This document shows positions 1,935 to 63,370 of a DNA stretch of 64,000 nucleotides, in pieces (within the stretch, counting starts at the first letter, position 1; each line of letters starts with the position of its first letter). Position numbers and translations under genes: made by a program. Source of the stretch: Eledone cirrhosa (taxonomy: Eukaryota). The DNA lies in contig OZ024742.1 in the NCBI GenBank assembly GCA_964016885.1, positions 290,718,001 to 290,782,000 of the forward strand. The letters run 5' to 3'. The notes beneath the pieces are model-generated. The model was not told where the DNA came from, searched no databases, and saw only the letters and a program-made list of their open reading frames with translations.

Positions 1935-1983
1935 GTATTTCAAGAATATTTCCAAGAAATACAGACAACTGAAACATCATCAG
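1935..1983 (+). CDS. Exon A, unit 1 (49 nt): last helix of macrodomain plus linker, VFQEYFQEIQTTETSS
   Basis: tttctaacag|GTATTT ... TCATCAG|gtaaac; phase 0-1; continues ...PTDSNLIE of exon F. Confidence 0.78.
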
Positions 1984-4900: not shown

Positions 4901-7900
4901 ATTTGCCATAAGAGATCCTCAGAGATTGCTAGGTTGAGCATTTGGAGCAATTGCAACGCCCTAATTGTGTGATGCTTATAAAAGGGGTGGGAGAAGTATG
5001 ATAATGTTTTCTTGATTTGAGCAGAGTTTGGGTTATTTTGGCTGTTGAAAGAGACATGCTTGTCATTGCTTCATTGGAGGATGGTTTTGAGGTCTCTTTC
5101 ATGGAGTCATTACAGACTTGGTGTGAGACAGTCAACAATTAGTTGAGAAAGGTTATGGAAGAATGAAGGGTTGTTACATTTGCATAAGAATGGGCATTGT
5201 TGAATGTGAAGTAAAGTAGATAATTGGTGTATAGAAAGAAAAGGAGGATGCAAAACTGCATGCAGGGGAACACCAAAGTTAGTTATAGTCTATAAACATA
5301 TTAAAATGTATTTCATTGTGAACTGACGTGGCATCATAATCATCATTTCATGTCTGATCTTCTGTGCTGGCATGGGTTGGATAGGTTGTTACAGACCAAA
5401 TCAGAACTTAATCAGGGTTACTAGTCTTCCAGACAAGTCAAGGGACTATGCCTCCTTTAAATATGTTCCACATTTGACATGGCTTCCAATGCTCTTTACA
5501 CAGGATACTGGGTACATTTTATTGTGGCACCACTGCTAAAGATGTTGTTGCATCCTTCATGTGATTAAGAAGGTCTTCTGAGCCTGTTTTTAGCACAGCC
5601 ACAAAAGCTGGCTGCACTTCCTATCACTAACCACTTCACAGAGTATATTGGGTGCATTTTATTGTGGCACCACTGTTGCATAGGTTATTATATCCATGGC
5701 ATGATTGAACAGTCTTCTCAATCCTTTTTTTGGCATGATTTCTATTGTTGAATGTTCTTCTTTAATGCCAACCATGTTACAGAGTGCATTGGGTTCATTT
5801 TATCATGGCACCAGCACTAAAGAGGTTATCATGTCATTAATGTGACTGAAGCTTCCTCTCTACCCTTTTTGACAAGATTTATGACTGGATTACCATTCTA
5901 AACCTAATTAGTTTAAAAAATTGACACATGTACAATTAATGCTTTGATACTAGCCTACTCAAAACCATCTCTGTTTCTATGAAACAAAAGCACCCATTTT
6001 GAAACATTCCTATTTATATTAAAATCGTCCAACATAATTTCATATAACTACTATATGTTAAGTTACTATCTTAGTAATGAAATTATTTATAATTTTAGTA
6101 AATCTATCCAAATTCTTAATTAAATAATTGAAATACATAGTTCATATTTAAATTAGTATCTTCTAACATAATTTTATATAAGAACCATATGTTAAGTTAC
6201 TATTTTGTTAATGAAATAACAATTTTACTAAATCCCTCAAAATTTCCATTAATTGGAATACAGTAATATTGTTACAAATGGGTTAATATCTTGTCTAGGT
6301 ACAGTAACATAAGAAAGCATCTGTTAGTTATATGACTATTTTTCTTTGACAAAATGAGTATTTCTTTTATTTCAGAGAGTGATGCATCAGAGGACAATAC
6401 AGTTACTGACGTCCATGAAAAAGACATGAGTGTCTCAGTGAAATTCATTTCAAAATATCAAAATCTTGACATAGCTGTAAAAACTGTTAAAGAAGAATAT
6501 ATCTCCATGTTATTGGATGAGGTGATGCCATTAGACTTTGAGTTAACAGAAGCTCAAGTAAGTTTGTCAAGAATGTTACATGTTTATTATTATCATCATG
6601 ACTGTGGATTGGTAGTATTGGTGGAGGGTCGGACGCCATGCTTTCCAGCATAGTTACGTCCCTTTACGATCTGAGTTCAAATCCCGCCGAGGTTGACTTT
6701 GCCTTTCATCCTTACGGGGTCGATAAAATAAAGTACCAGTAATGCACTGGGTACTTGCTGGCCTTGTGCCTAAAGTAGAAACAATTATTATCATCATGAC
6801 TAGGATGGTGGATTGGCAGTATCGGTAGAGCATTGGACATTCTGCTTTGTGGCACAGGGTTACAACCCTTTACGTTCTGAGTTCAAATCCAGCTTAGGTT
6901 TCTTCCTTACGAGATCGATAAAAGAAAGTACCAGTAACACACTGCGGGTCGATTTAATCTACTTTTCCCTCCCCCCAAAATTTGCTGGCATTGTGCCTGG
7001 ATTGGCAGTATCGGTAGAGGGTCTGACGCCATGCTTTGCAGCAAAGAGTTACGGCCCTTGCCATTCTGAGATCAAATCCCGCTGAGGTTAACTTTGCCTT
7101 TCAATCTTACGGGATCGATAACATAAAGTATTAGTAATACACTGGGATATTGCTGGCCTTGTGCCAAAAGCAGAAACAATTATTGGTGGATTGATGGGGA
7201 TGATGATGGTGCTGGTAATACTGATAATTATATTGGTGATGATAATGAGGTGCTTTATAAGAAATTGTTTTCTTTTATTAATTTTTTCAGAAGAAGGAAG
7301 TCAGAAACATTAATGGCAAGGACAAAGTCAACATAAATATTGGTTCAAGTATTAATATTCATGGCAGATTGCCTTGTGTAAAAGATGCCAAAATCAATAT
7401 TCAATCCCTATTAACGAAATTCAAAAAACAGGAAGAGGAATCATACATTAAAAACATGGTGCAGTGGTACTATTACAGTAGTGAAACACCTGAAAGAATG
7501 TTTGATGAAGAAGAAAATGCTGTGTTAGAGAAAGCTTTCTCACAGAAAAAAAAAACATACACATGGAGAAATATTGAATATGATATTAAGAATCTATGTT
7601 TTGTAAAGAATGGATTGCAATTTCAACTGAAGAGAACAGAAATAGGAAAAGGTGGTAAGGATGTCTTTTTATCATTATAGTCATCATCATCATTAACAAT
7701 CATCATTTTATGTCTACCTTTAGGGTGGTGGATTGGCATTATTAGTAGAGCATTGGACAACATGCTTTGCAGCATATAGTGATGCCTCTTTGTATTGAGT
7801 TCAAGTCCTACCAAGGTGAACTTTCCCTTTCATCCTTATGGGGTCGATAAAATAAAGTACCAGTAATGCACGGGTGAATTTATTCAACTTTCCTTTCTCC

Positions 7901-10900
7901 AAAAATGGTTGATCTTGTGCTTAAATCAGAAACTATTTTATGTCTACCTTTCCATGTTTGCATGGGTTAGATGAATTTGTTCCACCACAGTTTCCTCCAC
8001 TTGTGTCTTTCTTTCATTTCCTCTCTGAGGTTCAACATTTTGACATCAACTATTTACTATCCGGGTGACCATACTATGTCCCACCATTCCAAATGCTTTC
8101 AACATTTCAGCATCTATCTCCAAAGGTCCAGCTGCCTTGTCCGTCTTCATATCTTTGATTGCCTTACTTATTATACTACCATTAACTTGCACAGCTGGTC
8201 CCTCTACTGGATCAATTTGGGGCAGACCATCTTTTTTGCATTCATTCTCTTCATTTAGTAGTCTCTCATAGAGACATTTCCAAGCTACCTTCTTATCAGT
8301 GTAAGTGAGGGCAAGTAAACTATCATCATTACGGACACACTTCTCCCCGACAATATCACAGTTTTCCTTGACTCATTATTTCGCAATCCTGAACACCTCA
8401 CGTTTCTGGTCCTCGTGTTGTAGAACATGCTTGAACTTTCTATCCTCTGCTTCCCTTCTTGCAATGTACACTTGTCGCCGAGCTTCTCTCCTAACCATCT
8501 GATAGTGTTCTCTACTTCCCCACATCCCACCATTCTTTCCAAGCTTGCTTTTTGGCCTTGATTGTCTCCTCCACTTTACTGTTCCACTACCATGTTACTC
8601 TTCTGCCTAAAGGTTTGCTCCAGCCACAGATTTTTCTCTGTCGCCTTCAGCAGATTAACTTTCAGGAATAACCCACTCTTTCTCTATATTGTACATCTCT
8701 AATTACTCTTCCTTACTGTCAAAAGCATCAAATAATATGCTTTTAAATTTGTTACTGGCTGTGGGGTCCTTCAACTTCCATATTTTTCTCCTCGAGGTAG
8801 ACTTCTGTCATCGAGTACGCCTAGTCCTGACTATGAGGCCACTAACTATTAGGCTATGTTGGGAAGTGCATTCTTCATGAAGGAGGGACTTAGTGTTTAC
8901 AACAGACACTCTGTTTCATCTTCTAGGAAGAGTAAAATCTATCTGGCTGGCGTGTTCCCCTGATCTATAGGTAATCAAGTGATTGTCTCGTTTTATTAAA
9001 TTTGTGTTACAGATAGTTAGATTATTAGCATCACAGAATTCCAGGATCCTAAAGTCTTCGTCATTTCTAGTACCAAACCCATAGCCTCCATGGATTCCGT
9101 CATAGCCATCACAATGTCGCCCAACATGACCATTAAAGTCACCAGCAATAATTATGTAGTTATTGTTGGTTATTGAGAGGTAGTGAGCATTAGCGACTCA
9201 TAGAACCTGTCTTTTATAATGTCAAGTAGACCAGATTGGGGTGCATAAGCGGATATTATTGACACAGTTGTTCTATTTAAAACTAGTCTTATTTTAATTA
9301 TTCTGTCATTCACTCTATGGCAATTACCTTATCTACCCAGTTTTCTACTAATTCCTACTCCACCCAGCCCGTTGTCACATCCCATCTAGAAAAGTTTAAA
9401 GCATCGTTTTTTGCCCACAACAAATCTAGCAGACCCACCCCTCCACCTGGTCTCTTGAACACAACAAACATCAACTTCCTTACATTCAAACATCTCTACA
9501 ACCTCATTTGAGTGACCTTTAACCTGTATGCCTACATTCATGTTACCAACTCTGAAGTTTTGGAGTTCGCTGGGAGAGAGGAAGGGATGAGATGGGGGCA
9601 CAGTGAGGGGTGTGGGAGACAGAATTGTGTTGGTTTTGGTCTTCCATGTCTGAAATAAAGAGGAGTGCTTGCATGCTCGTCCAGAGATGGAAGGTGAATT
9701 TATCTTTGTCATTGTCATTGCTCAGACTCTCCATCTCTGAAGTCCATTTATCATACCGAACAACAACCAGGTTTAAGGAGTATTTTAAAGCTTTGCGATA
9801 GAGATTTTATGTTAGAAACCTTACTATAAACCACTGGGCTTTGATTGGACCAAATAACTATGGTGGTGAATGGGGGTGGGTGGGAGGAAAATGGGTAACT
9901 TTTGGAGATGCTTTTCAAAAGTGTGAGAGATAAAAAAATAATTGTTTCTACTTTAGGCACAAGGCCAGCAATTACCCAGTGCATTACTAGTACTTTATTT
10001 TATCGACCCCGTAAGGATGAAAGGCAAAGTCAACCTCGGCAGGATTTGAACTCAGATCGTAAAGGGCCTTAACTATGCTGGAAAGCATGGCGTCCGACCC
10101 TCTACTGATACTGCCAATCCACCACCCTAAAAAATAATAACAATAAGTATGGACAAAACAAAATTCCGAGAGAGAAAAGTTAATGCTAGAACAATCTATA
10201 CAAACAAAAATGACCAAGTATACTTAGTAAGTATACTTTTCAAATGTGTCTTTTTTTTTCAAAATCGCCCACCACTTAGATAAGCCATAAGACTTTTATT
10301 TTCTCATCCCTTAGCTTAATGGTAAAAACAGTCAACCAGAATTCAATAGATTCAGGTTTGTTTCTTCATAGTAGCTGCTGGACACGTTTTGAAACTAATT
10401 AAGAATTTAGAGTGATTTAGTAATATAAATAACTTTCTCATTATTAAGTTGATGTTTGGAACATACCTTTACATAGGTACATAAAATTCTGATGGAAGCT
10501 CCAATTAACCCTTTTGATATGAACTTTCCCCAGGTTCTCTGATATAAAACTATTTATTTTAAAGTATATTTAGCTTCCATCATAATTTTATGCAAGAACC
10601 TATCAAAGAACATCGGATTTATATGTGGTTGATGCACAGGTAAATAAGTAGCAAGAGCTCGCAAGATACTAGCTCCTTTAAATGTCCAGTGGACTCTGTA
10701 GAAGTAGTGGATAGTTTCTGATAACTGGGTGATTAAATTACAGTAGCCACCACTGCTCACAAAAGTGTTTTCTCTCAAAAGCTTGCATGCTCCAATGGAT
10801 GTGTAATAGTAATATACATGAACGGCAAAATGTAAATGAACTGATGGAGAAACTAGGCATAAAAGGGATTGGATCCAGTGTGCAGGAGACAAGATTGCAG

Positions 10901-13900
10901 TGGTATGGACATGTGATGGTATGAAGGATGACAGCTGTATAAAAAAGTGGGGGCACTTAAAGTTAATGGAATCTATGGAGTAGGAAGACCTATGAAAGCT
11001 TGGGATGAGGTGATAAAAACTAACCTCATACAATTGCACCTCTTTAAGACAATGAGACAGGATAATGATCTCTGGTATAATGCAATACTACAGAAGACCT
11101 ACCTTCCCATGTGCAAGGGACGAAGCAATGTCTAGTGGTCTTTAGTATGCACATCTCCCTCCCTCCCCTTGCATAATCCTACTTCATTAGAAATATAGTA
11201 ACAAAAGGTTTAAATTCTGACTTTGATTGTGACAACCAATCCAAACGTTGCTAGCAGTTAAAAAGGACATTGAATGATCATAATGATATATATATATATG
11301 TGTGTGTGTGTGTGTATAAATTATTGTTTTTATGTCTGCTTTATGATATTGAAAATGAAAAAAAGCATGTAATGCCCAATGCTTGGCCCAAGGCTATGGT
11401 AAATGATACTTGCTCAAGATGTCATGCAGTGAGATTTATCCTGAGACCTAATGATTTCAAATCAAACTATTTAACCATATGGTCATGCTGTATCAACATG
11501 CAACCATATAATGGCTCTGTCATTGGCCTTGTAATATATTTTATTAGCCATTCTTACCATATGATACTGTTTAGAAACTGATAAAATTACCAGTTTTTGT
11601 TTGACCATAGAATCATTACTATCAAGTTTATGGGACAAACACCTGCTGATGACTATGTGTGAGTCCTATTTGCTTATGTAGTTACTGTGGATGTGCCGTT
11701 ATATATAACCACATGTATAGTTGGTGTGTATTAAAAACTACTATGGACCAGGTAAACATGTTTCTTTTTTCCCTGGGTATTTGTTAATGACTCCTGCAGG
11801 AGGTTCACATGTCTATGCTATTTGTTCGTGTTCCTTTCTAATTTGAATAATGAATTGCCACTCAAAAACAATGAATTTATTTCCTGTACGATTTAGTATT
11901 GATATTTGTCTGTCTATCTCTATTGATCTGTCTATCTATATTGATTTGTCTGTCTGTCCACCCATTGGTTGATTAATAGATAGATAGATGCATAGATATA
12001 TTTCTTTATTTGCCACAAGGGCGCACAAGAAAAGGGGACAATACAAAGACACATGCCGGGGATTTTACATACAGTCGTGTAAAAACAAAACAAAAACAAA
12101 CAAACAATTATAACAATCGAAATCCCCAATAGAGGGGAGACGCCACAAATGGGTTGTTTAATACCCTGTTGATAGAACAACCCTCAACTTCAGGAGCGTG
12201 TTGTGCAAGTGCTCCTTTCTTCCTTTTGCTCTCTTCTTTAACCTACAGGCTTATAAACAGAGAAGGCCCAATCACTCGGGCCATTTTCGCTTCATTCACC
12301 CACCTTTCAGTAAATTTATTCGGGTGCAGTGCCTCTCTCTCCACTCTGATTCTTCTTCTTCTAAAGTGATACTTAAAGAAGGCAATCAATTGTTGTCCAG
12401 AGAGAAAGGCATCTGTCCTCAGTCCTCTCAATCTCTTCCACCATATAACCTCTTTCACCATAGTCACTGTACAGAGGAAAACCGCCTCTCTTTCGTTTTT
12501 GAAAGAGGCTGGCGGTTTGATCCTTACTATGGCTGTCAACTGGATTTGTCCCATACGCAACAGCAGTTGTTTTGCATAGTTCCACAGGTTGCTTACGCCC
12601 GGGCCGTGTACAATTGCGTGCAAGATGGTTTCAATGTCCTGCTCGCATCTTTAACACGTCCTCTTGGAAGGATCCCTGCCGGGGTGTCCGTGCCTGTAGA
12701 TCTTATCTCGAACGGGTAGAACTCCTCGGTAGCACTGCCAGGCCAGGGACCTCTGGAAGTTGTCCATAGGTCCCGGGCGGAAAGTCCTACCGAACAGACT
12801 GGTGAGCTCGTCGTCTTCGAAGCCTAGAGTCTCCCCGAGCACGTCGTCGCACTTGTAAAGTACTAACCCTTTATAGAATGTCGAAGTGGAGTCTCCACTG
12901 ATTGCTGTGCCCGCTAGACAGAGGACTGTAATCGCCTGGGCGCATTCAATGTGCCAGGCGCCCAACTTCTTTGATCATCACTTGACCCAGGACTGCAGCT
13001 CCGTCAGTGAGACAAGTTGTGGGAAGGCCTGTCTCACAAACGGTGCCCACACCGGTTGGTCGGTGAGGTATACCTGGAGATGCCGTAGCTTCAGCGCATG
13101 TTTGCGCATCATTAGCCACGGCATGCCCAGCCCTCCGTTGGAAGGGTGTTGACAACAGACGGATCTCCTCAGCAGTGGAGCCTGCTTCTTCCACAGGAGC
13201 TGGAAGAGCATCCGTTCCATCTTGGTGAGGTATTCACGGAGACAAGGCACGACATTCAAGCGGAAGTAGATGACGGACGTTATTAAAGAGTTCACCACCT
13301 CCGCTCGACCTTTCAAAGACAGTTTGCACTCTGCCCACTTCTGGGTGAGCGCAAATACCTTGGCCATGACCTCGTTCCAGTAGATAGATAGATAGATGGA
13401 TAGACAGATAATGTACACACACGCTCACACACAGATAATGTACACACTTGCACACACACACACACACATACATACATAATACTATTCTGCTATGTCAGTA
13501 CCAGCCTTGTAAAATAGTATTTTTGTGTTTATTTTCAGGAGGGACTCCATCAAAGACAACTGTTCCTGATTCTCAAAAAAAACATTTGCCTCCTAGCACC
13601 AATCTGGTATATTCAAAAAATATTGATATCAAAATAATGCTTGATTTAATTTCGAATGTCTCTGTGAGTAAACAATTTTATATCAAATATTTAAATTTAC
13701 TTATTCTATTTCAAATAATAAACTATTTATGTTGACTGAAACAGTAAAATGCAACCTCTAAATTTTCTTCATATAACACTGTCAATCTTTTTAACCATTT
13801 TTCTACCAAACCAGCTGAAACTAACCCTGGTTGTATGATACAAAACTATTGGTTTTTCAAGCAATTATATTTATCTAAAAACCTTCCACCATATTTTATG

Positions 13901-46900: not shown

Positions 46901-49900
46901 TTTCTATCGGGGACATTTGAAGTATCAACCAGATGCAAATACTGGTTTAATTTTAAATACCTTGTTTTTGCCATAATACTTGATATATAAGGGTCACTAA
47001 ACCTTATATCAGTGCTCCAGTAATTCCATAGTCTTGGAAATTGTTTTATACCAAACATAATATTTATGGTAAAAAACGCTTGCATCTCCGCAGCATCTGT
47101 CAGTCGCCATAACAGATCGGGTTTTCTTCGATTTGAAATTTGTTGTTGGGCATATCAATTAGTTTCTTTTGCCACAACTTTGAAGAAAGTTTGTGGCAAA
47201 AACAAAAAGAAATAATCCAGTGCTTTAGCATCAAGAGGTAATGTGTGTTGTGGACCAGTATTTTCAATAAAATCGGAAACATGTATAGGTGTGGTATTTG
47301 TCGACCACGTTGCTGTAATATCTTCAATGGCGTCCTGGAGATCTCCTTTGTTTTCACTTTCAAAACAACAATCATCGTCGGATGAAATTTCAGAAATGTA
47401 AACATCTGATTGATTTGAGGATAAATCACTAATATTATCTTTTGTTTCATCGTGTGTAAAACCTTCAAAGTCGGTATCGCTACTTTCACAAGCCATGTTG
47501 ATACACACAAAAAAAATCAGTTCTACTTTCAATGTTAAAAAAACACGTGTTGTTTCAAGTTGTTTCACTATGTTAAGTGTTAATTTTTGCAATAATTGCC
47601 TAATCTTGCAGTAATCTCGAATTGACGAGATTTTGATGACGTATTGTTTATTTTTAGAACAATATTTTAGTGTGGGTATTATTGGCCGTTTGGGGCCGGA
47701 TTGAACAAATGAAGAAGAAATAATTGCGGCCGGTTTGGACTGGTTTGAACACTAAAGGGTTAATAATCTCTTCTTTTTACTCCTTTTGTCCTTAATATCT
47801 GCTTTGTGTGTATTGTGGAAGGAGATAACTGTGAATGATATGTTTCTAGGTCATGTGATTAGAAGCTAAATCAGACTATTGGTGATGGTCAATGTGACAT
47901 TCTTGAAAGGATTTCTTCATAGAATCCTTGTATCTTTCTTAATGTAATTACATTAATGACACCAGTCTTCCAATACTCTATATATGAGTCTAATAATACT
48001 AACATAATTATTACCTCCTCCTACTCCTTCTCTTCATCATCATCATTTAACATCTATTTTCCCTGCTTAGGTTGGACGGGTTGTCACAGACTAAGTATGT
48101 ACTTAGTTGATGCCATTAACCTTTCAGACAAGCTGGGAAACTAAATCTTGCTTACATACATTCCCGCATTGGGTGTCTTATTTTGGGACAGCAATAAAGA
48201 GGTTGCATGTCTTTGACATGACTAATAAATCCTCTTGACCCTTTGTTTAGTAATTTCTTTTTTTCAGCTTGATACCCTTTCTTTCACCAACCAGTTCACA
48301 GAATATACCGTATGCATTTTATCATGCCACTAATACTACAGAGATTGATCTGTCATTGACACAACTGACGAGTCCTTTTGACACATAACAACAATATGTA
48401 ATTATTTTCAGTGTCCAAATTTCTTAGCTGTTACCCTAATTTACTCTTGTAGGTTGATGTTATTGTTAACAGCACCAATAAAGAACTCAATCTTAATTCT
48501 GGTGGTATCTCCAAATTTATTTTGCAAACTGCTGGTCCACAGATACAAGAAGAGTGCAATGCAAATTATCCTCAAGGTATTTCTACATCTACAATAGCCG
48601 TCACAAAGGGCTATAACCTGAAATGTGAATATGTATTTCATGTTTGTTTACCTGAATGGCATAAAGATAAATCTGATGAAGTAAGTATCAATTAAATACC
48701 ATATCATCACCATCATCAACGTCTCCCCCACCACCACAACCCCCACCACCACAACCCCCACCACCACCACCATTGACATTATTGCCATCATTATTTTCCA
48801 TTCATTTGGGCGGTGGATTAGCAGTATCGGTAGAGAGTCGGACGCCATGCTTTCCAATATAGTTACGTCCCTTTACGGTCTGAGTTCAAATCCCGCCGAC
48901 GTTAACTTTGTCTTTCATCCTATGGGATCGATAAAATAAAGTACCAGTAATGTACTGGGTAATTTACTGGTCTTGTGCCAAAAGTAGAAACAGTTATTTT
49001 CCATTCACTTTCAATGTTGACATAGGTTGGACAGATTGTCAGGGTTTGAGCTTTAAGAATCTCTTCAACAAACATAACACTAGAATACTGGTTACCAAAG
49101 TAAGTTTTCTGGGTTGTCTCCAATGATTTTTTAGAAAACTAGAATTAGTCCTTTAGTTTACATATTGAGACACCAAACCATCGTATTCATTCTATAATGT
49201 ATGGGATTTCTAGTAATGAATTTTTTCTTGCCATGTATAATGTTTTTTAATGTCTAAAGAAAATTAATTGTCGCAGGAATGCTACCACTTAAAATAAAAT
49301 TTCACCAGGAATAGATTATGAAAATTTAATAAGCAGGGGATTGGAAAAAATCTGAAAAATTAATAAGTGGTGGGGATTGATTATTTGAGACACCTGAGAA
49401 TATATGAATTAAATGTATACAAACTACAAGACAGATGAACACGTAATCATAAATTTGCATCACACCAAACCATAAATTAACAGTTACAATGTACTAAAAT
49501 GAATAAACTCCTTATTAACAGTATACAAACCTAGAAATGAATAACACGATTTATTCATTTGGTTACAAAAATGAAAGTTATAAACTTCATGAAAGCAACT
49601 GTTACATTGGCCATTAATGTATAACACACACATGAATGCTCACCATGCATTTACAAGAAGGAGAAATAGCAGCACACTACACCACACACCATAAAATAAA
49701 GCTGGATAGGAGAACATTAATGAGAATACATCTGTATTATAGAGGATTCTAAACAAAAAAAAAAACATTTAATCATGGAAGAGATCAATATACATCATCA
49801 TCATCATTGTCGTCATTTAAAGTCTATTTTCTCAGTCAAATGCTAATGAGACAAACAACATACACATGTCATAAACATGAGACTTATCAGGTAGAAGTCT

Positions 49901-52900: not shown

Positions 52901-55900
52901 TGGAACTTGCTGTACTGTTGGTTACTGCCTTGTTGGTTGCTGCCTTGTTGGAACTTGCTGTACTGTTGGTTACTGCCTTGTTGGGACTTGCTGTACTGTT
53001 GGTTACTGCCTTGTTGGTTGCTGCCTTGTTGGAACTTGCTGTACTGTTGGTTACTGCCTTGTTGGGACTTGCTGTACTGTTGGTTACTGCCTTGTTGGTT
53101 GCTGCCTTGTTGGAACTTGCTGTACTGTTGGTTACTGCCTTGTTGGGACTTGCTGTACTGTCGGTTACTGCCTTGTTGGTTGCTGCCTTGTTGGAACTTG
53201 CTGTACTGTTGGTTACTGCCTTGTTGGGACTTGCTGTACTGTTGGTTACTGCCTTGTTGGGACTTGCTGTACTGTTGGTTACTGCCTTGTTGGGACTTGC
53301 TGTACTGTTGGTTACTGCCTTGTTGGGACTTGCTGTACTGTTGGTTACTGCCTTGTTGGGACTTGCTGTACTGTTGGTTACTGCCTTGTTGGAACTTGCT
53401 GTACTGTTGGTTACTGCCTTGTTGGGACTTGCTGTACTGTTGGTTACTGCCTTGTTGGGACTTGCTGTACTGTTGGTTACTGCCTTGTTGGGACTTGCTG
53501 TACTGTTGGTTACTGCCTTGTTGGAACTTGCTGTACTGTTGGTTACTGCCTTGTTGGGACTTGCTGTACTGTTGGTTACTGCCTTGTTGGGACTTGCTGT
53601 ACTGTTGGTTACTGCCTTGTTGGGACTTGCTGTACTGTTGGTTACTGCCTTGTTGGGACTTGCTGTACTGTTGGTTACTGCCTTGTTGGTACTTGCTGTA
53701 CTGTTGGTTACTGCCTTGTTGGTTACTGCCTTGTTGGAACTTGCTGTACTGTTGGTTACTGCCTTGTTGGGACTTGCTGTACTGTTGGTTACTGCCTTGT
53801 TGGTTACTGCCTTGTTGGAACTTGCTGTATTGTTGGTTGCTGCGTTGTTGGAACTTGCTGTACTGTTGGTTACTGCCTTGTTGGGACTTGCTGTACTGTT
53901 GGTTACTGCCTTGTTGGGACTTGCTGTACTGTTGGTTACTGCCTTGTTGGGACTTGCTGTACTGTTGGTTACTGCCTTGTTGGAACTTGCTGTACTGTTG
54001 GTTACTGCCTTGTTGGTTACTGCCTTGTTGGAACTTGCTGTACTGTTGGTTACTGCCTTGTTGGGACTTGCTGTACTGTTGGTTACTGCCTTGTTGGTTA
54101 CTGCCTTGTTGGAACTTGCTGTATTGTTGGTTGCTGCGTTGTTGGAACTTGCTGTACTGTTGGTTACTGCCTTGTTGGAACTTGCTGTACTGTTGGTTAC
54201 TGCCTTGTTGGGACTTGCTGTACTGTTGGTTACTGCCTTGTTGGTTACTGCCTTGTTGGGACTTGCTGTATTGTTGGTTGCTGCGTTGTTGGAACTTGCT
54301 GTACTGTTGGTTACTGCCTTGTTGGGACTTGCTGTACTGTTGGTTACTGCCTTGTTGGGACTTGCTGTACTGTTGGTTACTGCCTTGTTGGAACTTGCTG
54401 TACTGTTGGTACTTGCTGTACTGTTGGTTACTGCCTTGTTGGGACTTGTTGTACTGTTGGTTACTGGCTTGTTGGAACTTGCTGTACTGTTGGTTACTGC
54501 CTTGTTGGGACTTGCTGTACTGTTGGTTACTGCCTTGTTGGGACTTGCTGTACTGTTGGTTACTGCCTTGTTGGTTACTGCCTTGTTGGTTACTACCTTG
54601 TTGGGAGTGACTTCCAAAAAACATGTCATAGTAAGATGTTAATTGCCAATTAACTCTAAAGGCCTTGTACTGCATGAAACTACATTGAACATTTTTGAAA
54701 TGTACAAAACAGCACTACGAGTGCAGAAAATAAAAAAAAGTATTTTACTACAATACTGCGAATGTTCATAATTATCATCATTATCATCATTGTTTAACGT
54801 CCATCTTCTATACTAGCATGGGTAGGACGGGCTGTCCCTTTGTGAGAGATCAGGTTGGAGGACTGTGATTTGCTGACACAGAACTGATTTTGACTTCATT
54901 TCTACGGTTGGATACCCTTCCTAATGCCAACCACATTTACAGTGTGTGCTGGGTGCTTTTTGTTGTGACATCTATACGACCTCTTTATAGTGAGGACTGA
55001 GTGCTTTTGTCGTGACACCTACATGACCACTATATAGCTCTTTCACAATGTATCCAGCAATAAAGATACTATATGTATGTGAATTAACAAACTTGTTTTT
55101 AGATATTTTCTGCTAAATCATTACAGGATGGCAAGAGTTAACATAACATCCTGTACCACATGAAAGCACATTAGCAAGACACTCTTGAAAAGCACAAATC
55201 TGTGCTATGACCACATCACATTAAAAATTAAAATCTTCACTCTTTGTCACAGCAATCTGTTCACTAGTAAAGATACTATAAACAATTGAATTAACAAATT
55301 TATTTTTAGATATTTTCTGCTAAATAATTTCAGGATGTTAAAAGTTAATGAACCATAATTTGTTTTTAGATTTTGATGAGCTTAAACAATATAATACTCA
55401 CTTGTCTACAAACTGCTGAGGAAAGGGGAGCCAAAAGCATTGCATTCCCTATATTAGGGGAAGGAATCTTGAAATACCCTCTTGGTGAACTACCTTCAAC
55501 CATGTATGATGCCGTGAAAACATACTCACATAGTAATACAAGGCAGATTGATGTTGTCAACTTTGTTATTTTACCTACAGATTCAAACTTAATAGAGGTT
55601 GGTTGATTTATTTTGTTTTTATTGTATTTTTGATTCTCTTGATATTCTTAATTCTTTTTCTTGTTATATGTTGTAACCATAGTTACTATTATTAGATTGC
55701 AGTCATGGTTATAGAAATTAGACTATGCCCATGGTTACAGTTATTAAATTGTAGCCATGGTTAGTTATTAAACTAGTTATGTTTACAGTTTTTGAATTGG
55801 CCATTGTTACAATCATTAGACTGCTGCCATGCTTGGGCACCACCTTAAACAGATTTAGTACTTATCTATGTTGCTCAAGGGTTGGATGAATCAGTACAGT

Positions 55901-58900
55901 CTAAAACTAGACCACATTTTGACTAATAAATTCCATGGCTAGATACACTTCTTAATGTCACCCACCTTATAGAGTGTATTGGATGCATTTTATTATGGCA
56001 CCATCATTTTATATATTTACATATATTTCTTGGTAGAGCTATTCTGATAGAGAATGGCTCACACGTGGCAGATAGTGATATGACCACTAGATATGATGGT
56101 TAGTTGAAGCATAAGTGGGTTTCTGTTGAATGAATAAGCAACACCGGATCAAACAGTATTAAGCTACTAGGGAGATGGAATAAAGGGTGACACTGTTAGC
56201 TTTCAAATAAACTCTTACAAGTTAGCAATGTACATATGATGAAGCAAGTAAAGGGTGCCTCTAAACAAGTCTAGTCTTTGTGGGTCTGAGAAAATTACCA
56301 AATTGGTGACAGGTGCAAATAATATCACCAAAAAGTGCACCACGCCAAGCTTCTTTCACACACAGCATTTAAAAGCTGAAGCAGAAACTGCTCAGCTGAA
56401 CAAGTTCTATATTGTTTCAATGTCCTCAGTTTTCTCAGGGAGTTCTCTGAATTTGGATACAATAGTGTCTGCATACCTGGTCCTGACTTTCTTATCCACC
56501 AACGCTTCCCACTTTATCTTGTTGGTCACCCTGGACTTGCCAGTTTTGTGGGCTTATTTGGCTTTAGGTAGTCTCAAGCTGTAGATAAATAGATGATGAC
56601 CAGTTGACAGCTCAGCCCCTCTCTTAACACAAATTTCCAGTACTCAATCGAAGAGATCAGAGGCAATAACAAAATCAATTATTGATCGCTGTCCCTGATT
56701 CCCCTTATACCATATATATTTATGGATGTTTCTGTGCTGGAAGAAGGTGTTTATAATAGAGAGTCCATTGCTAAAACAGAAGTCTAATAAGGCCTCTCCA
56801 TTCTTATATAGGTTGGGATTACCGATCCTTCCAATCATTCCTTTCCATGTCAGGTGGTCTGTGCTAACATGTGCATTGAAGTCTCCCATTAGGATATATG
56901 ACTCAGTCTTAACTAGATCTTACGCTGCAGTGACTTCATCAAGGAAGGATCTGTATTTGGACTCTTTGTTCAGTGAATAAACTTGCACCACCCACAAAAC
57001 CCTATCTTTCAGCCTAAGCTTCAAGAGGCAAATCCTCTCACCTAATGATGTCCAGTCTATAACACATTCTGACAGTCGGGGGGCTGTGAGTATCCCCACT
57101 GCTGCCTGTGCAGTCATTTCTGGTGTCATATCTGAATAGTGGAGTTTCCGTTCTCTATCCAAATCTTCAGTACCAGATCCACGGAACTTGTTGAGGAAAC
57201 CCAAACTATATATAGCTGGAAGCATCTAAACCACTCCACTAGTTCCTGCTCCTTACCTGTAAGGATTGTGGTGCTCCAGGTTCCAATTGTCAAGGTTTGT
57301 TAGCTTCCAAACCATCTTTGATGTCTCGAGATATGCAATCGTTATGCGTCTATCCCATGCCTCCCAGGACAGGCTGTAAGCTCATTACCAGTTTTTACAG
57401 CATGAAATAGAGACTGCAATATATTTTTTGAACAGGTCCCTCTAGTTAAGGCCCGAATGTGTCCCTTATTAATTCATGTGAAGGATAATATTGCAGTTTT
57501 GGTGGTTTTATTCCTGCCAGTCACCAATCTGGTACTTTCTCAGACCCATGAAGAGTAGGCTTTTTTAGAGGTGGCATTTTCATAGCTACATCACTGGGTT
57601 GTGAAAGATTTCTTGGGAACTAAAGGTATCACCCATTACTTCATCTCCCTTAGTAATTCACCACTGTTGGTCCAGGGGTTGTTTACTTGTCCAGCAGGTA
57701 CTCACTTATATCATAACTAACTAATATTACTGTTGGCCGTATCGCTATTCCCCACCTATGACCTGTTCTCTAGCAGAACAGCTCTGCCAAAAAGTATAAG
57801 AGTAACAAATAAAAACCAAGAGAAATATTAATTTAAAACAATATTCATGGTTGAGTTAGAGCTAGTCTTTTAAATCTGTTTTTCCCTGTTTTGCATGGTT
57901 TGGACAGAGCCTGGAGCTTATCCCAGTTACTTGGGCATTAAACTAAGGGTACTTATGTTTAGCTAAATCAACTGGAACAGCATGAAATGAAGTGCCTTGC
58001 TGGTCTGAACATTGAACCCAAGGTCTTTACATTCACAATAGAAATAATACATAATTAAAACATTTTATTGTAATTTATTGATAAATATAACAATTAATTT
58101 GAAATGTAGTCATCCCAATGCATGTGACTCTAATAATAGCTGACCACTGTAGATAATAGTTTAAAAAATTAGGTACAATACCCCTGGAGATGGAAAAAAG
58201 TGGACAGCGGTGCTTGCGAGGAATTAAACCCTAAACCAGGCAAGTGTATTATTCACTGTTATACCAATATGTCTCTGACCACTGACTGCTGTCTTTTAGA
58301 AGCATTTAACCCTTTACTATTTACATTATTCTATATATACTATTGTATTTTCATGGTAAAGGCTTTACCTCACATAATTATCTCTCATAATATCGAATCT
58401 AAGAGATTTTGATATTATTTATGTTGAGAACAATACCTTAACATCAGTATGATCAACTGGTTACAATTGGCTTGAACTGAAAGATATGAGAGAATTTTGG
58501 CCAGATTTGGCTGGTTTAAATGCTAAAGGGTTAAACTTGTATCTAGAAGTGGTTGACTTGAAACATTGGGAACATTTTAAATATGAAATATTGTTCTATT
58601 TATAGTGATCAACTACTATTTTAATCATCTGCATTGGGACAACTACATTTTAAATTTCAAACTTTGCCAATGTATCTTAAGTCAACCAGAAGATAACAAT
58701 TAATGTTTCCATGGAATTATAACATGAAAGTCTTTGGTTATTTCTAACAGGTATTTCAAGAATATTTCCAAGAAATACAGACAACTGAAACATCATCAGG
58801 TAAACACACAATATTTTATTCACAGATGTATAAATAACATTAAAAATTGTTCACAATTCTTTCAGAATGAAAATATAACAAATATAATAAATACAATTAA

Positions 58901-61900: not shown

Positions 61901-63370
61901 TTGAGGTCTCTTTCATGGAGTCATTACAGACTTGGTGTGAGACGGTCAACAATTAGTTGAGAAAGGTTATGGAAGAATGAAGGGTTGTTACATTTGCATA
62001 AGAATGGGCATTGTTGAATGTGAAGTAAAGTAGATAATTGGTGTATAGAAAGAAAAGGAGGATGCAAAACTGCATGCAGGGGAACACCAAAGTTAGTTAT
62101 AGTCTATAAACATATTAAAATTTATTTCATTGTGAACTGACGTGGCATCATAATCATCATTTCATGTCTGATCTTCTGTGCTGGCATGGGTTGGATAGGT
62201 TGTTACAGACCAATCAGAACTTAATCAGGGTTACTAGTCTTCCAGACAAGTCAAGGGACTATGCCTCCTTTAAATATGTTCCACATTTGACATGGCTTCC
62301 AATGCTCTTTACACAGGATACTGGGTACATTTTATTGTGGCACCACTGCTAAAGATGTTGTTGCATCCTTCATGTGATTAAGAAGGTCTTCTGAGCCTGT
62401 TTTTAGCACAGCCACAAAAGCTGGCTGCACTTCTTATCACTAACCACTTCACAGAGTATATTGGGTGCATTTTATTGTGGCACCACTGTTGCATAGGTTA
62501 TTATATCCATGGCATGATTGAACAGTCTTCTCAATCCTTTTTTTGGCATGATTTCTATTGTTGAATGTTCTTCTTTAATGCCAACCATGTTACAGAGTGC
62601 ATTGGGTTCATTTTATCATGGCACCAGCACTAAAGAGGTTATCATGTCATTAATGTGACTGAAGCTTCCTCTCTACCCTTTTTGACAAGATTTATGACTG
62701 GATTACCATTCTAAACCTAATTAGTTTAAAAAATTGACACATGTACAATTAATGCTTTGATACTAGCCTACTCAAAACCATCTCTGTTTCTATGAAACAA
62801 AAGCACCCATTTTGAAACATTCCTATTTATATTAAAATCGTCCAACATAATTTCATATAACTACTATATGTTAAGTTACTATCTTAGTAATGAAATTATT
62901 TATAATTTTAGTAAATCTATCCAAATTCTTAATTAAATAATTGAAATACATAGTTCATATTTAAATTAGTATCTTCTAACATAATTTTATATAAGAACCA
63001 TATGTTAAGTTACTATTTTGTTAATGAAATAACAATTTTACTAAATCCCTCAAAATTTCCATTAATTGGAATACAGTAATATTGTTACAAATGGGTTAAT
63101 ATCTTGTCTAGGTACAGTAACATAAGAAAGCATCTGTTAGTTATATGACTATTTTTCTTTGACAAAATGAGTATTTCTTTTATTTCAGAGAGTGATGCAT
63201 CAGAGGACAATACAGTTACTGACGTCCATGAAAAAGACATGAGTGTCTCAGTGAAATTCATTTCAAAATATCAAAATCTTGACATAGCTGTAAAAACTGT
63301 TAAAGAAGAATATATCTCCATGTTATTGGATGAGGTGATGCCATTAGACTTTGAGTTAACAGAAGCTCAA
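1935..63370 (+). CDS. PARP14-like: Multi-exon PARP14-like (macro-PARP family) gene fragment with tandemly repeated macrodomain-KH-like-WWE modules; 14 exons in window, open at both ends
   Basis: All 14 predicted exons have polypyrimidine-AG acceptors and GT donors with compatible phases (0-1,1-0,0-1,1-0,0-0,0-0) and no stops; translation shows macrodomain motifs (VDVIVN, GG..AG, GYNLKC..VFH, SIAFP.LG.G) and a PARP14-type WWE. Confidence 0.8.
2170..3400 (-). mobile_element. Rearranged RTE LINE fragments; copies at ~29726-30956 and ~58986-60223
   Basis: EAWKCYYERLMNVEN and DSLCYLGD...GGCSES...RTGWKKFR are RTE ORF motifs; pieces occur out of the normal order. Confidence 0.75.
3500..3639 (+). 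mobile_element. tRNA-derived SINE (family with GCCTTTCATCCTTACGGGGTCGATAAAATAAAGTACCAGT core), followed by (CAT)n and an inverted RTE-tailed SINE end
   Basis: A-box-like TGGCAATATCGG and B-box GTTCAAATCC; many similar copies in the window. Confidence 0.75.
4050..4270 (-). mobile_element. RTE LINE 3' end; copies at ~31603-31823 and ~60863-61083
   Basis: RWYGHVMRM...GRPRKTW...DRDLWR. Confidence 0.8.
4268..4515 (+). mobile_element. SINE tail plus full SINE of the same family
   Basis: GTGGATTGGCAGTATCGGTAGAG ... GCTGGCCTTGTGCCAAAAGTAGAAACAATTATT. Confidence 0.78.
4620..5300 (-). mobile_element. Old CR1/L2-group LINE RT C-terminal fragment; copies at ~32173-32854 and ~61433-62113
   Basis: ISEDLLW..ILNIARTA and MEYCSYIW (minus strand, ~4757-4782). 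Confidence 0.55.
6376..6557 (+). CDS. Exon B, unit 1 (182 nt): linker/KH-like region, ESDASEDN...FELTEAQ
   Basis: ttttatttcag|AG ... GCTCAA|gtaagt; phase 1-0; within ORF 6354-6653. Confidence 0.8.
6604..7183 (+). mobile_element. Three tandem SINE copies filling intron B-C; copies at ~34158-34737 and ~63417-63996
   Basis: Three repeats of the GGATTGGCAGTATCGGTAGAG head and core. Confidence 0.8.
7291..7654 (+). CDS. Exon C, unit 1 (364 nt): KH-like helix plus WWE domain (VQWYYYSSETPERMFDEEENAVLEKAFSQKKK...QLKR)
   Basis: ttttttcag|AAG ... AAAGGTG|gtaagg; phase 0-1; resembles the PARP14 pre-WWE and WWE region. Confidence 0.85.
7724..7937 (+). mobile_element. SINE, same family; copy at ~35278-35491
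   Basis: Head, core and tail recognisable. Confidence 0.75.
7980..9650 (-). mobile_element. Decayed RTE LINE, endonuclease to linker; copy at ~35534-37204
   Basis: GNMNVG...VDVCCVQETRWRG, SAYAPQSG and AGDFNGHVG motifs. Confidence 0.82.
9936..10125 (-). mobile_element. SINE, same family, reverse orientation; copy at ~37483-37672
   Basis: Reverse complement of the SINE consensus. Confidence 0.8.
10820..11110 (+). mobile_element. RTE LINE 3' end; copy at ~38367-38657
   Basis: RRLQWYGHV and GRPMKAWDEV. Confidence 0.75.
12001..13380 (-). mobile_element. 5'-truncated L1/Tx1-like non-LTR retrotransposon (ORF2 C-terminus plus 3' UTR), unit 1
   Basis: W...KLSLKGRAEVVNS...LLW...GGLGMP and LPVRDKI...HAIVH motifs typical of L1/Tx1 ORF2 ends; AATAAAGAAA 3' end; flanked on both sides by GATA repeats. 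Confidence 0.85.
13539..13663 (+). CDS. Exon D, unit 1 (125 nt): linker and first strands of macrodomain (NIDIKIMLDLISNVS)
   Basis: ttattttcag|GA ... GTCTCT|gtgagt; phase 1-0. Confidence 0.8.
13977..14060 (+). mobile_element. 84-bp 5'-truncated SINE present only in unit 1
   Basis: Unit 2 has TCTATT-CAC-ATTATTTTGAG at ~41518-41537 in its place. Confidence 0.88.
14598..15487 (-). pseudogene. piggyBac transposase 3' half, frameshifted
   Basis: SDTGYCANFDVYPGK followed by ORFs 14660-15415 and 14598-14783. Confidence 0.85.
15488..15740 (-). repeat. Putative 3' LTR (253 bp, TG...CA) of the Gypsy element
   Basis: Minus strand reads AGGGGGGCG (PPT) then TGTGGGTATG...TTCTAACCTCA, followed directly by piggyBac codons TCG GAC ACA GGC TAC; no second LTR available to confirm. 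Confidence 0.7.
15488..18976 (-). mobile_element. Ty3/Gypsy LTR retrotransposon, 5'-deleted (partial gag, PR, RT, RH, IN, PPT, 3' LTR), unit 1
   Basis: GC-rich block; gag zinc knuckles CFRCQGPHMARDC; protease ALVDMG; RT FYIDD (~17550); RNase H HINVAELDAV/RTDS; integrase HH-CC and DDE; domain order PR-RT-RH-IN; frameshifts and stops. Confidence 0.92.
18977..19290 (+). mobile_element. tRNA-derived SINE with RTE-type tail ending (TGA)n, joining Gypsy gag to piggyBac, unit 1
   Basis: B-box-like GAGTTCAATTC, CCTTGAGTAAGACACTTTA core, GTTAGGAAGGCCATCCAGC and GGACGT..(TGA)n tail seen elsewhere in the window in reverse orientation. Confidence 0.72.
19291..20032 (-). pseudogene. piggyBac transposase 5' half (acidic N-terminus to first catalytic Asp), disrupted
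   Basis: ORFs 19691-20128 and 19223-19621; ATG at 20032; premature stop near 19691. Confidence 0.85.
20989..21216 (+). CDS. Exon E, unit 1 (228 nt): macrodomain core VDVIVNSTNKELNLNSGGISKFILQTAGPQIQEEC...GYNLKCEYVFHVCLPEW
   Basis: tactcttgtag|GTT ... GATGAA|gtaagt; phase 0-0; not in the ORF track, translated by hand. Confidence 0.9.
21346..21534 (+). mobile_element. SINE, same family; copy at ~48810-48998
   Basis: Full head, core and tail. Confidence 0.8.
22740..23918 (-). mobile_element. Decayed RTE LINE reverse transcriptase fragment abutting the minisatellite; copy at ~50204-51381
   Basis: VPGRSTTD, RQLQEKFL...AFVELKKAF, GVHQ.S.LS.LL, YCYLGD...GWKKFRELLPLL. Confidence 0.85.
23919..25346. 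repeat. 33-bp minisatellite (TGTTGGTTACTGCCTTGTTGGGACTTGCTGTAC) with 15- and 30-bp variant units, 1428 bp
   Basis: Read directly; generates the four long repetitive ORFs. Confidence 0.97.
26110..26337 (+). CDS. Exon F, unit 1 (228 nt): macrodomain C-terminal half (CLQTAEERGAKSIAFPILGEGILKYP...VNFVILP)
   Basis: tgtttttag|ATT ... ATAGAG|gttggt; phase 0-0; SIAFP motif. Confidence 0.9.
26950..28100 (-). mobile_element. Decayed RTE-like LINE, apurinic endonuclease region
   Basis: MGDFNAHV, NTFFQHR..HKYTW, SIIDFVI, ELSTGHH motifs. Confidence 0.82.
29491..29539 (+). CDS. Exon A, unit 2
   Basis: Copy of 1935-1983 with the same splice sites. Confidence 0.78.
33930..34111 (+). CDS. Exon B, unit 2 (D->N relative to units 1 and 3)
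   Basis: Copy of 6376-6557; MLLNEV versus MLLDEV. Confidence 0.8.
34845..35208 (+). CDS. Exon C, unit 2: KH-like plus WWE (S->R relative to unit 1)
   Basis: Copy of 7291-7654; YSRET versus YSSET. Confidence 0.85.
39548..40927 (-). mobile_element. L1/Tx1-like element, unit 2
   Basis: Copy of 12001-13380. Confidence 0.85.
41086..41210 (+). CDS. Exon D, unit 2
   Basis: Copy of 13539-13663 with intact splice sites. Confidence 0.8.
42953..46440 (-). mobile_element. Ty3/Gypsy element, unit 2 (3' LTR 42953-43205; integrase ORF 43348-44184 uninterrupted)
   Basis: Copy of 15488-18976. Confidence 0.92.
46441..46754 (+). mobile_element. SINE with (TGA)n tail, unit 2
   Basis: Copy of 18977-19290. 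Confidence 0.72.
48453..48680 (+). CDS. Exon E, unit 2: macrodomain core
   Basis: Copy of 20989-21216 with intact splice sites. Confidence 0.9.
51382..54606. repeat. Same 33-bp minisatellite expanded to 3225 bp in unit 2
   Basis: Read directly; same flanks as in unit 1. Confidence 0.97.
55370..55597 (+). CDS. Exon F, unit 2: macrodomain C-terminal half
   Basis: Copy of 26110-26337 with intact splice sites. Confidence 0.9.
56210..57360 (-). mobile_element. Decayed RTE-like LINE endonuclease region, next copy
   Basis: Copy of 26950-28100. Confidence 0.82.
58751..58799 (+). CDS. Exon A, unit 3
   Basis: Copy of 1935-1983. Confidence 0.78.
63189..63370 (+). CDS. Exon B, unit 3
   Basis: Copy of 6376-6557. 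Confidence 0.8.

Follow-up and report, generated by a model that had tools for sequence, protein, structure and literature searches.

A phase-symmetric array of macrodomain-KH-WWE exons within a PARP14-like gene of Eledone cirrhosa

The repeated unit and its domains

The 64,000-nt stretch of Eledone cirrhosa DNA analyzed here (the window; assembly GCA_964016885.1, contig OZ024742.1, G000:C3:290718001-290782000) lies in the middle of a PARP14-like gene, which we call gene C. This is the third of four tandem PARP14-like paralogs (A to D) at C3:290.20-290.98 Mb, which are a few percent apart. We read 864 kb around the window, throughout which there is no N. Exon positions given without a contig prefix are positions in the window.

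Self-alignment of the window reveals a tandem repeat with periods of ~27.5 and ~29.3 kb, and 98.0-99.5% identity. The repeat unit comprises six exons of 49, 182, 364, 125, 228 and 228 nt, summing to 1,176 nt. AG/GT ends flank each of the 14 exon copies in the window, and the phases chain from one copy to the next. On joining the 14 exons a frame of 861 codons is obtained without a stop; the remaining two frames hold 62 and 87 stops. Just two exonic sites differ between the copies inside the window. An earlier sequence-only reading of this DNA had described the six-exon unit with the same coordinates and arithmetic, and had claimed intact splice sites, matching phases and a stop-free frame running through the units. 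Re-derivation from the window confirms all of this. The exons and junctions in the window are as follows.

1935..1983, plus strand: linker exon after a macrodomain, 49 nt, phase 0 to 1; AG/GT ends and open frame
6376..6557, plus strand: likely first half of a KH8-like domain, 182 nt, phase 1 to 0; 46-48% identity to octopus homologue P0001 1115-1168, no Pfam match, spliced to the next exon in sequencing run X4
7291..7654, plus strand: likely end of the KH8-like domain plus WWE, 364 nt, phase 0 to 1; assigned from sequence, Atlas cluster and fold model
8045..8060, no strand assigned: novel junction that defines the unit, ~400 nt of post-WWE intron being joined, without long homology, to DNA of the intron that follows the large KH exon
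11375..11390, no strand assigned: second junction, a switch into the intron that normally precedes macrodomain 2
13539..13663, plus strand: linker and first strand of a macro2-type domain, 125 nt, phase 1 to 0; assigned from open frame and homologues
20989..21216, plus strand: macrodomain N-terminal exon, 228 nt; Pfam Macro, best PDB match human PARP14 macrodomain 2
26110..26337, plus strand: macrodomain C-terminal exon, 228 nt, loop-2 Ala to Glu; Pfam Macro
29491..29539, plus strand: linker exon, next unit
33930..34111, plus strand: KH-like exon, next unit
34845..35208, plus strand: KH-WWE exon, next unit
41086..41210, plus strand: macrodomain lead-in exon, next unit
48453..48680, plus strand: macrodomain N-terminal exon, next unit
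55370..55597, plus strand: macrodomain C-terminal exon, next unit, loop-2 Ala to Glu
58751..58799, plus strand: linker exon, third unit
63189..63370, plus strand: KH-like exon, third unit

The repeated block has the macrodomain lead-in exon as its first exon and the WWE exon as its last, and both of its edges are in phase 1, so that copies can be gained or lost in frame. There are no 5' exons, shared 5' region or ADP-ribosyltransferase (ART) exons inside the units, which rules out an arrangement of one gene per unit. The array is an intragenic, phase-1-symmetric amplification in one PARP14-like gene and not a row of separate genes, as had been claimed. The earlier count was of at least three modules. 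The array reaches past the window, with four WWE exons and six macro2-type domains in gene C, and the gene has four macro-KH-WWE modules plus a seventh macrodomain. The introns also contain a 33-bp variable number tandem repeat (VNTR), at 23920-25329 (~43 copies) and, in the next unit, at 51383-54606 (~97 copies). Five of its six frames are without stops, and it is probably non-coding.

Pfam Macro matches the exons at 20989 (E 4.5e-14) and 26110 (E 1.4e-5). The two 228-nt exons make up one macrodomain, whose closest solved relative is macrodomain 2 of human PARP14. In the Pfam scan of single exons the 364-nt exon matched neither WWE nor KH, and the 182- and 125-nt exons were without any match. 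Thus the macrodomain proposed in the sequence-only reading is matched by Pfam, and its WWE domain is backed by other routes. The 364-nt exon has a weak match to the PARP14 WWE structure 1x4r (phmmer, E 0.027), and aligns to the KH8-WWE stretch of the homologue P0030. It falls in an Atlas cluster named WWE/KH_PARP14_8 (0.85), which is a lead only. An AlphaFold model of the exon from 7 sequences has a pLDDT (predicted local distance difference test) of 85.7, and in a Foldseek search with the WWE model all 19 of the best listed rows are WWE-containing chains (best E 1.4e-3, none <1e-3). The Foldseek rows for KH domains, to vigilin, KSRP and MEX3C, have E ~1 and root mean square deviations of 1.6-1.9. 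A word-based homologue search with the WWE exon found none among 112 candidates. Taken with the fold model, the WWE assignment is well supported. That of KH in the 182- and 364-nt exons, which draws on the Foldseek rows and the position against P0030, is weaker and moderately supported.

Gene C, its paralogs and the origin of the array

Genome searches placed 7 WWE, 11 macro and 4 terminal ART exons of the close family, as lower bounds, all inside the cluster. A genome search with PF00644 gave 13 matches with none on C3; it missed the cluster and is therefore uninformative on absence. Paralog A is canonical. It has 1,617 codons, with an RRM-like start, a large KH-type exon, three macrodomains, KH-WWE and an intact ART, so that its domain count is three macro, one WWE and ART. 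Paralog B resembles A and its ART is intact; the first modelled exon was not found in B. In paralog D the ART is intact, the RRM exon is broken by an insertion of ~460 nt, a stop and a lost donor (C3:290858317-290859009), and most of macro1 and one macrodomain are missing, the large exon being followed directly by a macro lead-in exon (C3:290913784-290933868). The four paralogs are young tandem octopod PARP14-like copies.

Some further features of the family were observed. In B the third macrodomain is again of the macro2 type and has the linker exon of macro2 (C3:290516945-290535042), and C and D carry macro2/macro3 chimeras, which points to repeated exchange between macrodomain blocks. The intron between ART exons 1 and 2 of D is filled by a ~9 kb tandem array (C3:290957843-290966789). 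Exonic differences between the paralogs are mostly non-synonymous, and the WWE exon has 10 variable codons with none synonymous; this is compatible with drift or positive selection, the numbers being too few to test. Elsewhere in the genome another PARP-domain gene occurs twice, inverted, at C23:885055-888682 and C23:1444641-1448286, with identical scores for two of three exons; it is either a recent duplication or an assembly duplicate. There are three DTC-domain (Deltex-type) loci, at C2:279.44 Mb, C2:409.44-409.50 Mb and C22:12.61 Mb, none of them at the PARP14-like cluster.

Gene C spans C3:290598561-290821858. Its 37 exons all have GT-AG ends and join into a single open frame of 2,639 codons. 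The order is RRM-like exons, a shortened large KH-type exon, macro1, macro2, macro3-KH-WWE, three times macro-KH-WWE, then one more macrodomain, the seventh, and a linker exon. Taken provisionally from the first Met, the conceptual product has a length of 2,637 residues. It contains seven macrodomains (counted using a profile built in this analysis) and four WWE domains, but lacks an ART. Gene C retains its own copy of the shared 5' region. One exon of the N-terminal region matches RRM_PARP14_1 below the cut-off (E 8.5e-5); a search for upstream coding exons and a start codon with homologue N-termini gave nothing credible. The shortened large exon has no Pfam match, and is ~40% identical to the corresponding region in octopus homologues. 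It is 564 nt shorter than that of A, in frame, and both C-private deletions in it are in frame.

The KH and WWE exons of the last unit are deleted, with a few bases of microhomology at the deletion. Each of the three ART exons is broken, the first by a TGA after 14 codons, the second by a frameshift of 4 nt and the third by insertion of a repeat of ~336 nt, and AATAAA signals are present 3' of the last of them. These features lie beyond the window:

G000:C3:290782104-290782467: fourth KH-WWE exon
C3:290788352-290805109: seventh macrodomain and linker, the KH and WWE exons of this last unit being deleted
C3:290812643-290821858: three broken ART exons

The flanks had been pointed to as the place for an N-terminus and an ART domain. 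The RRM-like start does lie upstream, but the ART exons, though present, are broken in three ways. This rules out that the gene encodes a complete PARP14 that has a working ART and additional modules. With its ART exons broken, gene C is derived from PARP14 but is not a working PARP14 enzyme.

The junctions within the unit provide some indication of how the array began. Near 8052, after ~400 nt of the post-WWE intron, the sequence passes without long homology into DNA from the intron after the large exon, and near 11381 it switches again into the intron preceding macro2. Homologous recombination via a shared repeat is not supported as the first event, given the lack of long homology at the junction near 8052. 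The first duplicate would instead have arisen by a non-homologous join of the post-WWE intron to an upstream intron. An element of 3.7 kb on the minus strand of the next intron (~15260-18980 and ~42700-46450) recurs in the macro2 intron of C but has no counterpart in A and B; this suggests that the array originated in the C lineage. The retroelement there is a broken, GC-rich fragment, with Pfam RVT_3 and DUF7047 on one frame, and is adjoined by a DDE_Tnp_1_7 transposase fragment at 14663-15502. Divergence is 0.47-0.75% among the three middle units, compared to 1.4-1.6% for the first and last. The low divergence of the middle units is as expected for recent unequal crossover between units, which would have driven the expansion.

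The middle units are 99.3-99.5% identical, and this might raise the suspicion that the unit number is an assembly artefact, arising from false duplication or from haplotypes placed in tandem. We consider this very improbable. Each pair of units differs by 126-230 substitutions, and the units also differ in the length of the 33-bp VNTR and in intron insertions. The four WWE-to-macro junctions are present at the DNA level within 864 kb of sequence free of N. Contigs from two DNA-like runs, X1 and X2 (which may be the assembly's own sample), differ from the window just once over 6183-6642. Two sites in this interval are specific to the amplified units, and at least one amplified-unit allele is therefore present in the reads. 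On the other side, none of the contigs listed spans a junction between units, and calibration of the read depth was not possible. Contig depth does not measure copy number; the values of 88.7 (KH-WWE) and 118.3 (macro lead-in) were not used, and the restriction-site-associated DNA sequencing run barely covers the exons.

Predicted function of gene C and competing explanations

By the criteria of PMC10221186, the hydrolase residues of macro1 are Asn and Gly in loop 1, with a hydrophobic and an aromatic residue in loop 2. The first macrodomain of C is MD1-like, the repeated domain being closest to human MD2. It aligns with D20, N34 and G42 of Af1521, and has Ile-Phe in loop 2; by sequence the hydrolase residues are present in macro1 of A and C. 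At the position of Af1521 G42, macro1 of B and D has Arg (C3:290463127-290464647 and 290913784-290915319). We take G832 of PARP14 to be the equivalent of this position. G42E abolishes binding in Af1521 (PMC8319303) and G832E diminishes the activity of PARP14 macro1 (PMC10499325). With an intact ART and this Gly to Arg change in loop 1, the sequences of B and D suggest that they are writer-only paralogs. The pattern is complementary, B and D having an intact ART with Arg in macro1, and C having kept the macro1 motifs with a broken ART. The architecture of gene C and these complementary losses are real at the DNA level. All six macro2-type domains of C lack the loop-2 aromatic. The two macrodomains that lie wholly in the window have Glu in loop 2, at a position that is Ala, Thr, Pro or Ser in all 68 matched homologue domains, so that some of the repeated readers may bind ADP-ribose poorly.

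On the basis of these sequences we tentatively favor, with somewhat less than even confidence, the view that gene C encodes an ART-less scaffold that reads and erases ADP-ribose, similar to PARP9, beside its writer paralogs. If the exons are spliced as the intact sites allow, a protein of 2,637 residues would result, with seven macrodomains and four KH-WWE units. Macrodomain 1, which keeps the hydrolase motifs, would erase mono-ADP-ribose, and the six macro2-type domains would be readers, two perhaps weakened. The KH-WWE units could be protein-docking sites, by analogy with human PARP14, in which KH8 binds DTX3L and PAR (poly(ADP-ribose)) binding was not detected for the WWE (PMC13224862). The latter casts doubt on the earlier premise that this WWE reads ADP-ribose. 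The product would then act like PARP9, as a partner without ART activity that tunes ADP-ribosylation by the ART-intact neighbors. A wider proposal, which we put forward as a rather unlikely one, is that the opposed activities of PARP14 have been split, between B and D as writers only and a giant C as eraser and reader only. The accordion-like number of modules would make C a tunable multivalent scaffold, and an independent invention of the PARP9 kind.

Evidence on expression comes from run X4, which was called RNA-like from its contigs alone. A contig of 645 nt joins 6557 to 7291 unbroken, and the unique intron bins have near-zero depth. This indicates that a PARP14-like family transcript is spliced. 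At 7576, a site at which A and B depart from the window, the X4 contigs carry the window letter. The end of the 645-nt contig coincides exactly with the WWE donor at 7654, a sign of a branch at this site. Presumably one branch leads to ART, and the other could lead to a macrodomain exon or into the intron. On reading through the intron a stop is encountered after eight codons (7678-7680), with an AATAAA at 7851. The frame permits a transcript with four macro-KH-WWE modules, where at least three in one transcript had been claimed, but the joint on which this depends was not seen among those listed, as discussed below.

Gene C might be expressed without the array being read as one unit. The transcript might run into the intron and terminate after the first WWE, it might have a variable number of modules through skipping of phase-1 blocks, or it might rarely skip the broken ART into the exons of D and so regain an ART. 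All block edges are in phase 1, as are the acceptors of D, and the in-frame stop and AATAAA that follow the WWE donor would serve for the shorter form. The branch at 7654 fits, and the named octopus homologues include forms without KH-WWE between macrodomain and ART. Yet no such isoform was observed, C has an AATAAA of its own after its last ART exon, and the large exon of D is ~109 kb from the last intact exon of C. We therefore judge this explanation improbable, although less so than an artefact of assembly.

A much more serious rival is that gene C is a young or decaying pseudogene, because its ART is broken in three ways and its last unit has lost the KH and WWE exons. The message would be absent or degraded, and the array a neutral by-product of a recombination-prone cluster, with phase symmetry and conversion keeping the frame open. 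We regard this as a real possibility, held with less than even confidence, and near-even with the reader/eraser reading. In the ART exons of C, 575 nt contain 18 private substitutions, whereas A, B and D have 3, 1 and 2 respectively. This divergence is at a neutral rate, and the three lesions compare with about 2-3 expected by drift. Paralog D is damaged too, so that decay would be common in the cluster.

Several observations weigh against a functional scaffold. Some concern the transcript. The 7654->13539 joint from WWE to macro is absent among the 15 listed of ~3,820 joints in X4, in a listing flooded by matches to short interspersed nuclear elements. The branch at 7654 is equally compatible with intron read-through. 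At 6463, 7415, 7482, 13573 and 13577 the letters of X4 differ from the window, being mostly of A/B type, although contigs drop rare variants; the alleles seen in X4 are mostly not those of the window. The stop of gene C lies 87 nt before an exon junction, with two introns downstream, which fits the 50-55-nt rule for nonsense-mediated decay. In PMC12277549 this rule is stated for chordates and proposed for a snail. Others concern constraint. Upstream of the ART the exons of C are no more conserved than their flanks, with 15 differences in 2,274 (0.66%) compared to 58 in 9,818 (0.59%; p 0.65), unlike those of A and B taken together, where there is slight conservation (0.64% vs 0.99%, p 0.025). 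The large KH exon, in addition to its loss of 564 nt, has 19 private changes in 908 columns, of which 17 are non-synonymous and 2 synonymous. Lastly, the divergence of C varies from stretch to stretch, so that the frame could be kept open, without selection, through gene conversion from intact paralogs.

Four points argue against a pseudogene. Upstream of the ART there are ~37 C-private substitutions with no stop and no frameshift, where drift would be expected to give 3.8-6.0 disabling changes (P 0.003-0.022, using the local indel ratio of 115 per 994 mismatches). All 37 exons have kept GT-AG ends. The macro1 motifs are kept in C but altered in B and D, and the X4 contig breaks at the WWE donor.

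The balance between the two activities is the reason for interest in an ART-less reader/eraser scaffold. PARP14 both writes and erases mono-ADP-ribose, which raises the question of how these opposed activities are kept in balance. A cluster in which A has both activities, B and D apparently the writer only, and C apparently the eraser plus readers would provide a direct test of that balance. If true, a PARP9-like regulator would have arisen again in molluscs, and both multivalency and the role of KH8-WWE in PARP14 could be probed with a naturally repeated macro-KH-WWE unit. Should C be a pseudogene, the locus would still be a clear and very recent case of phase-1 exon-block shuffling in an immune gene cluster, of modest interest.

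Comparison with known systems

PARP14 and the invertebrate PARP14-like macroPARPs have the order RRM-KH-macro1-2-3-KH8-WWE-ART. Gene C has the same domain types in the same order up to the first WWE, including the tandem MD1 and MD2/3-type macrodomains and a KH8 followed by WWE; its N-terminal RRM and KH region is a tentative assignment. It departs from PARP14 in passing from WWE to a macrodomain four times, so that it has seven macrodomains and four WWE domains. The single WWE leading directly to ART and the intact C-terminal mono-ART of PARP14 are lacking; an intact ART is found in A, B and D. Tandem clusters of PARP14-like genes are known, with four in lancelet and six in a sponge according to PMC4245714. 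We collected 47 homologues, including 17 of 2,618-3,514 residues; several are fragments or isoforms, and non-octopod proteins of <2,595 residues are barely sampled. One WWE is present in 23 of these and none in the other 24. None of the 47 has two WWE domains, or a macrodomain after a WWE. Literature searches, which left most subscription papers and supplements (possibly with domain tables of mollusc macroPARPs) outside their reach, returned no description of this architecture. The rapid evolution of macroPARPs is said to be the subject of PMC4038475.

The closest named proteins are PARP14-like proteins of Octopus sinensis and O. vulgaris, with 65-76% identity in the macro exon, and 26 of 28 matches are named Octopus. 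In these homologues too the macro2-type domains have multiplied, with five to six macrodomain matches in P0001, P0002 and P0004-P0007, and KH-WWE is often absent. Gain and loss of phase-1 blocks is therefore common in octopods. The octopus proteins repeat the macrodomain alone, whereas the block in gene C includes KH-WWE.

As described in PMC13224862 and PMC10221186, PARP9 has a hydrolase macro1, a macro2, an inactive ART and DTX3L as partner, and was derived from PARP14 by duplication. Gene C is comparable, by analogy only, in its predicted active macro1, its reader domains, its lack of transferase activity and its derivation from PARP14. The differences are clear. PARP9 is confined to jawed vertebrates, retains an inactive ART, and has two macrodomains and no WWE. 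Gene C is from an octopod, is truncated before the ART, and is independent and recent.

The array itself has counterparts in the kringle IV-2 repeats of LPA and the long repeats of complement receptor 1, where multi-kb, near-identical and phase-symmetric blocks of exons lie within one gene and are open to unequal crossover. Those arrays belong to secreted or surface proteins of proven expression, whereas the module of gene C is of an intracellular, ADP-ribose type and is known here at the DNA level.

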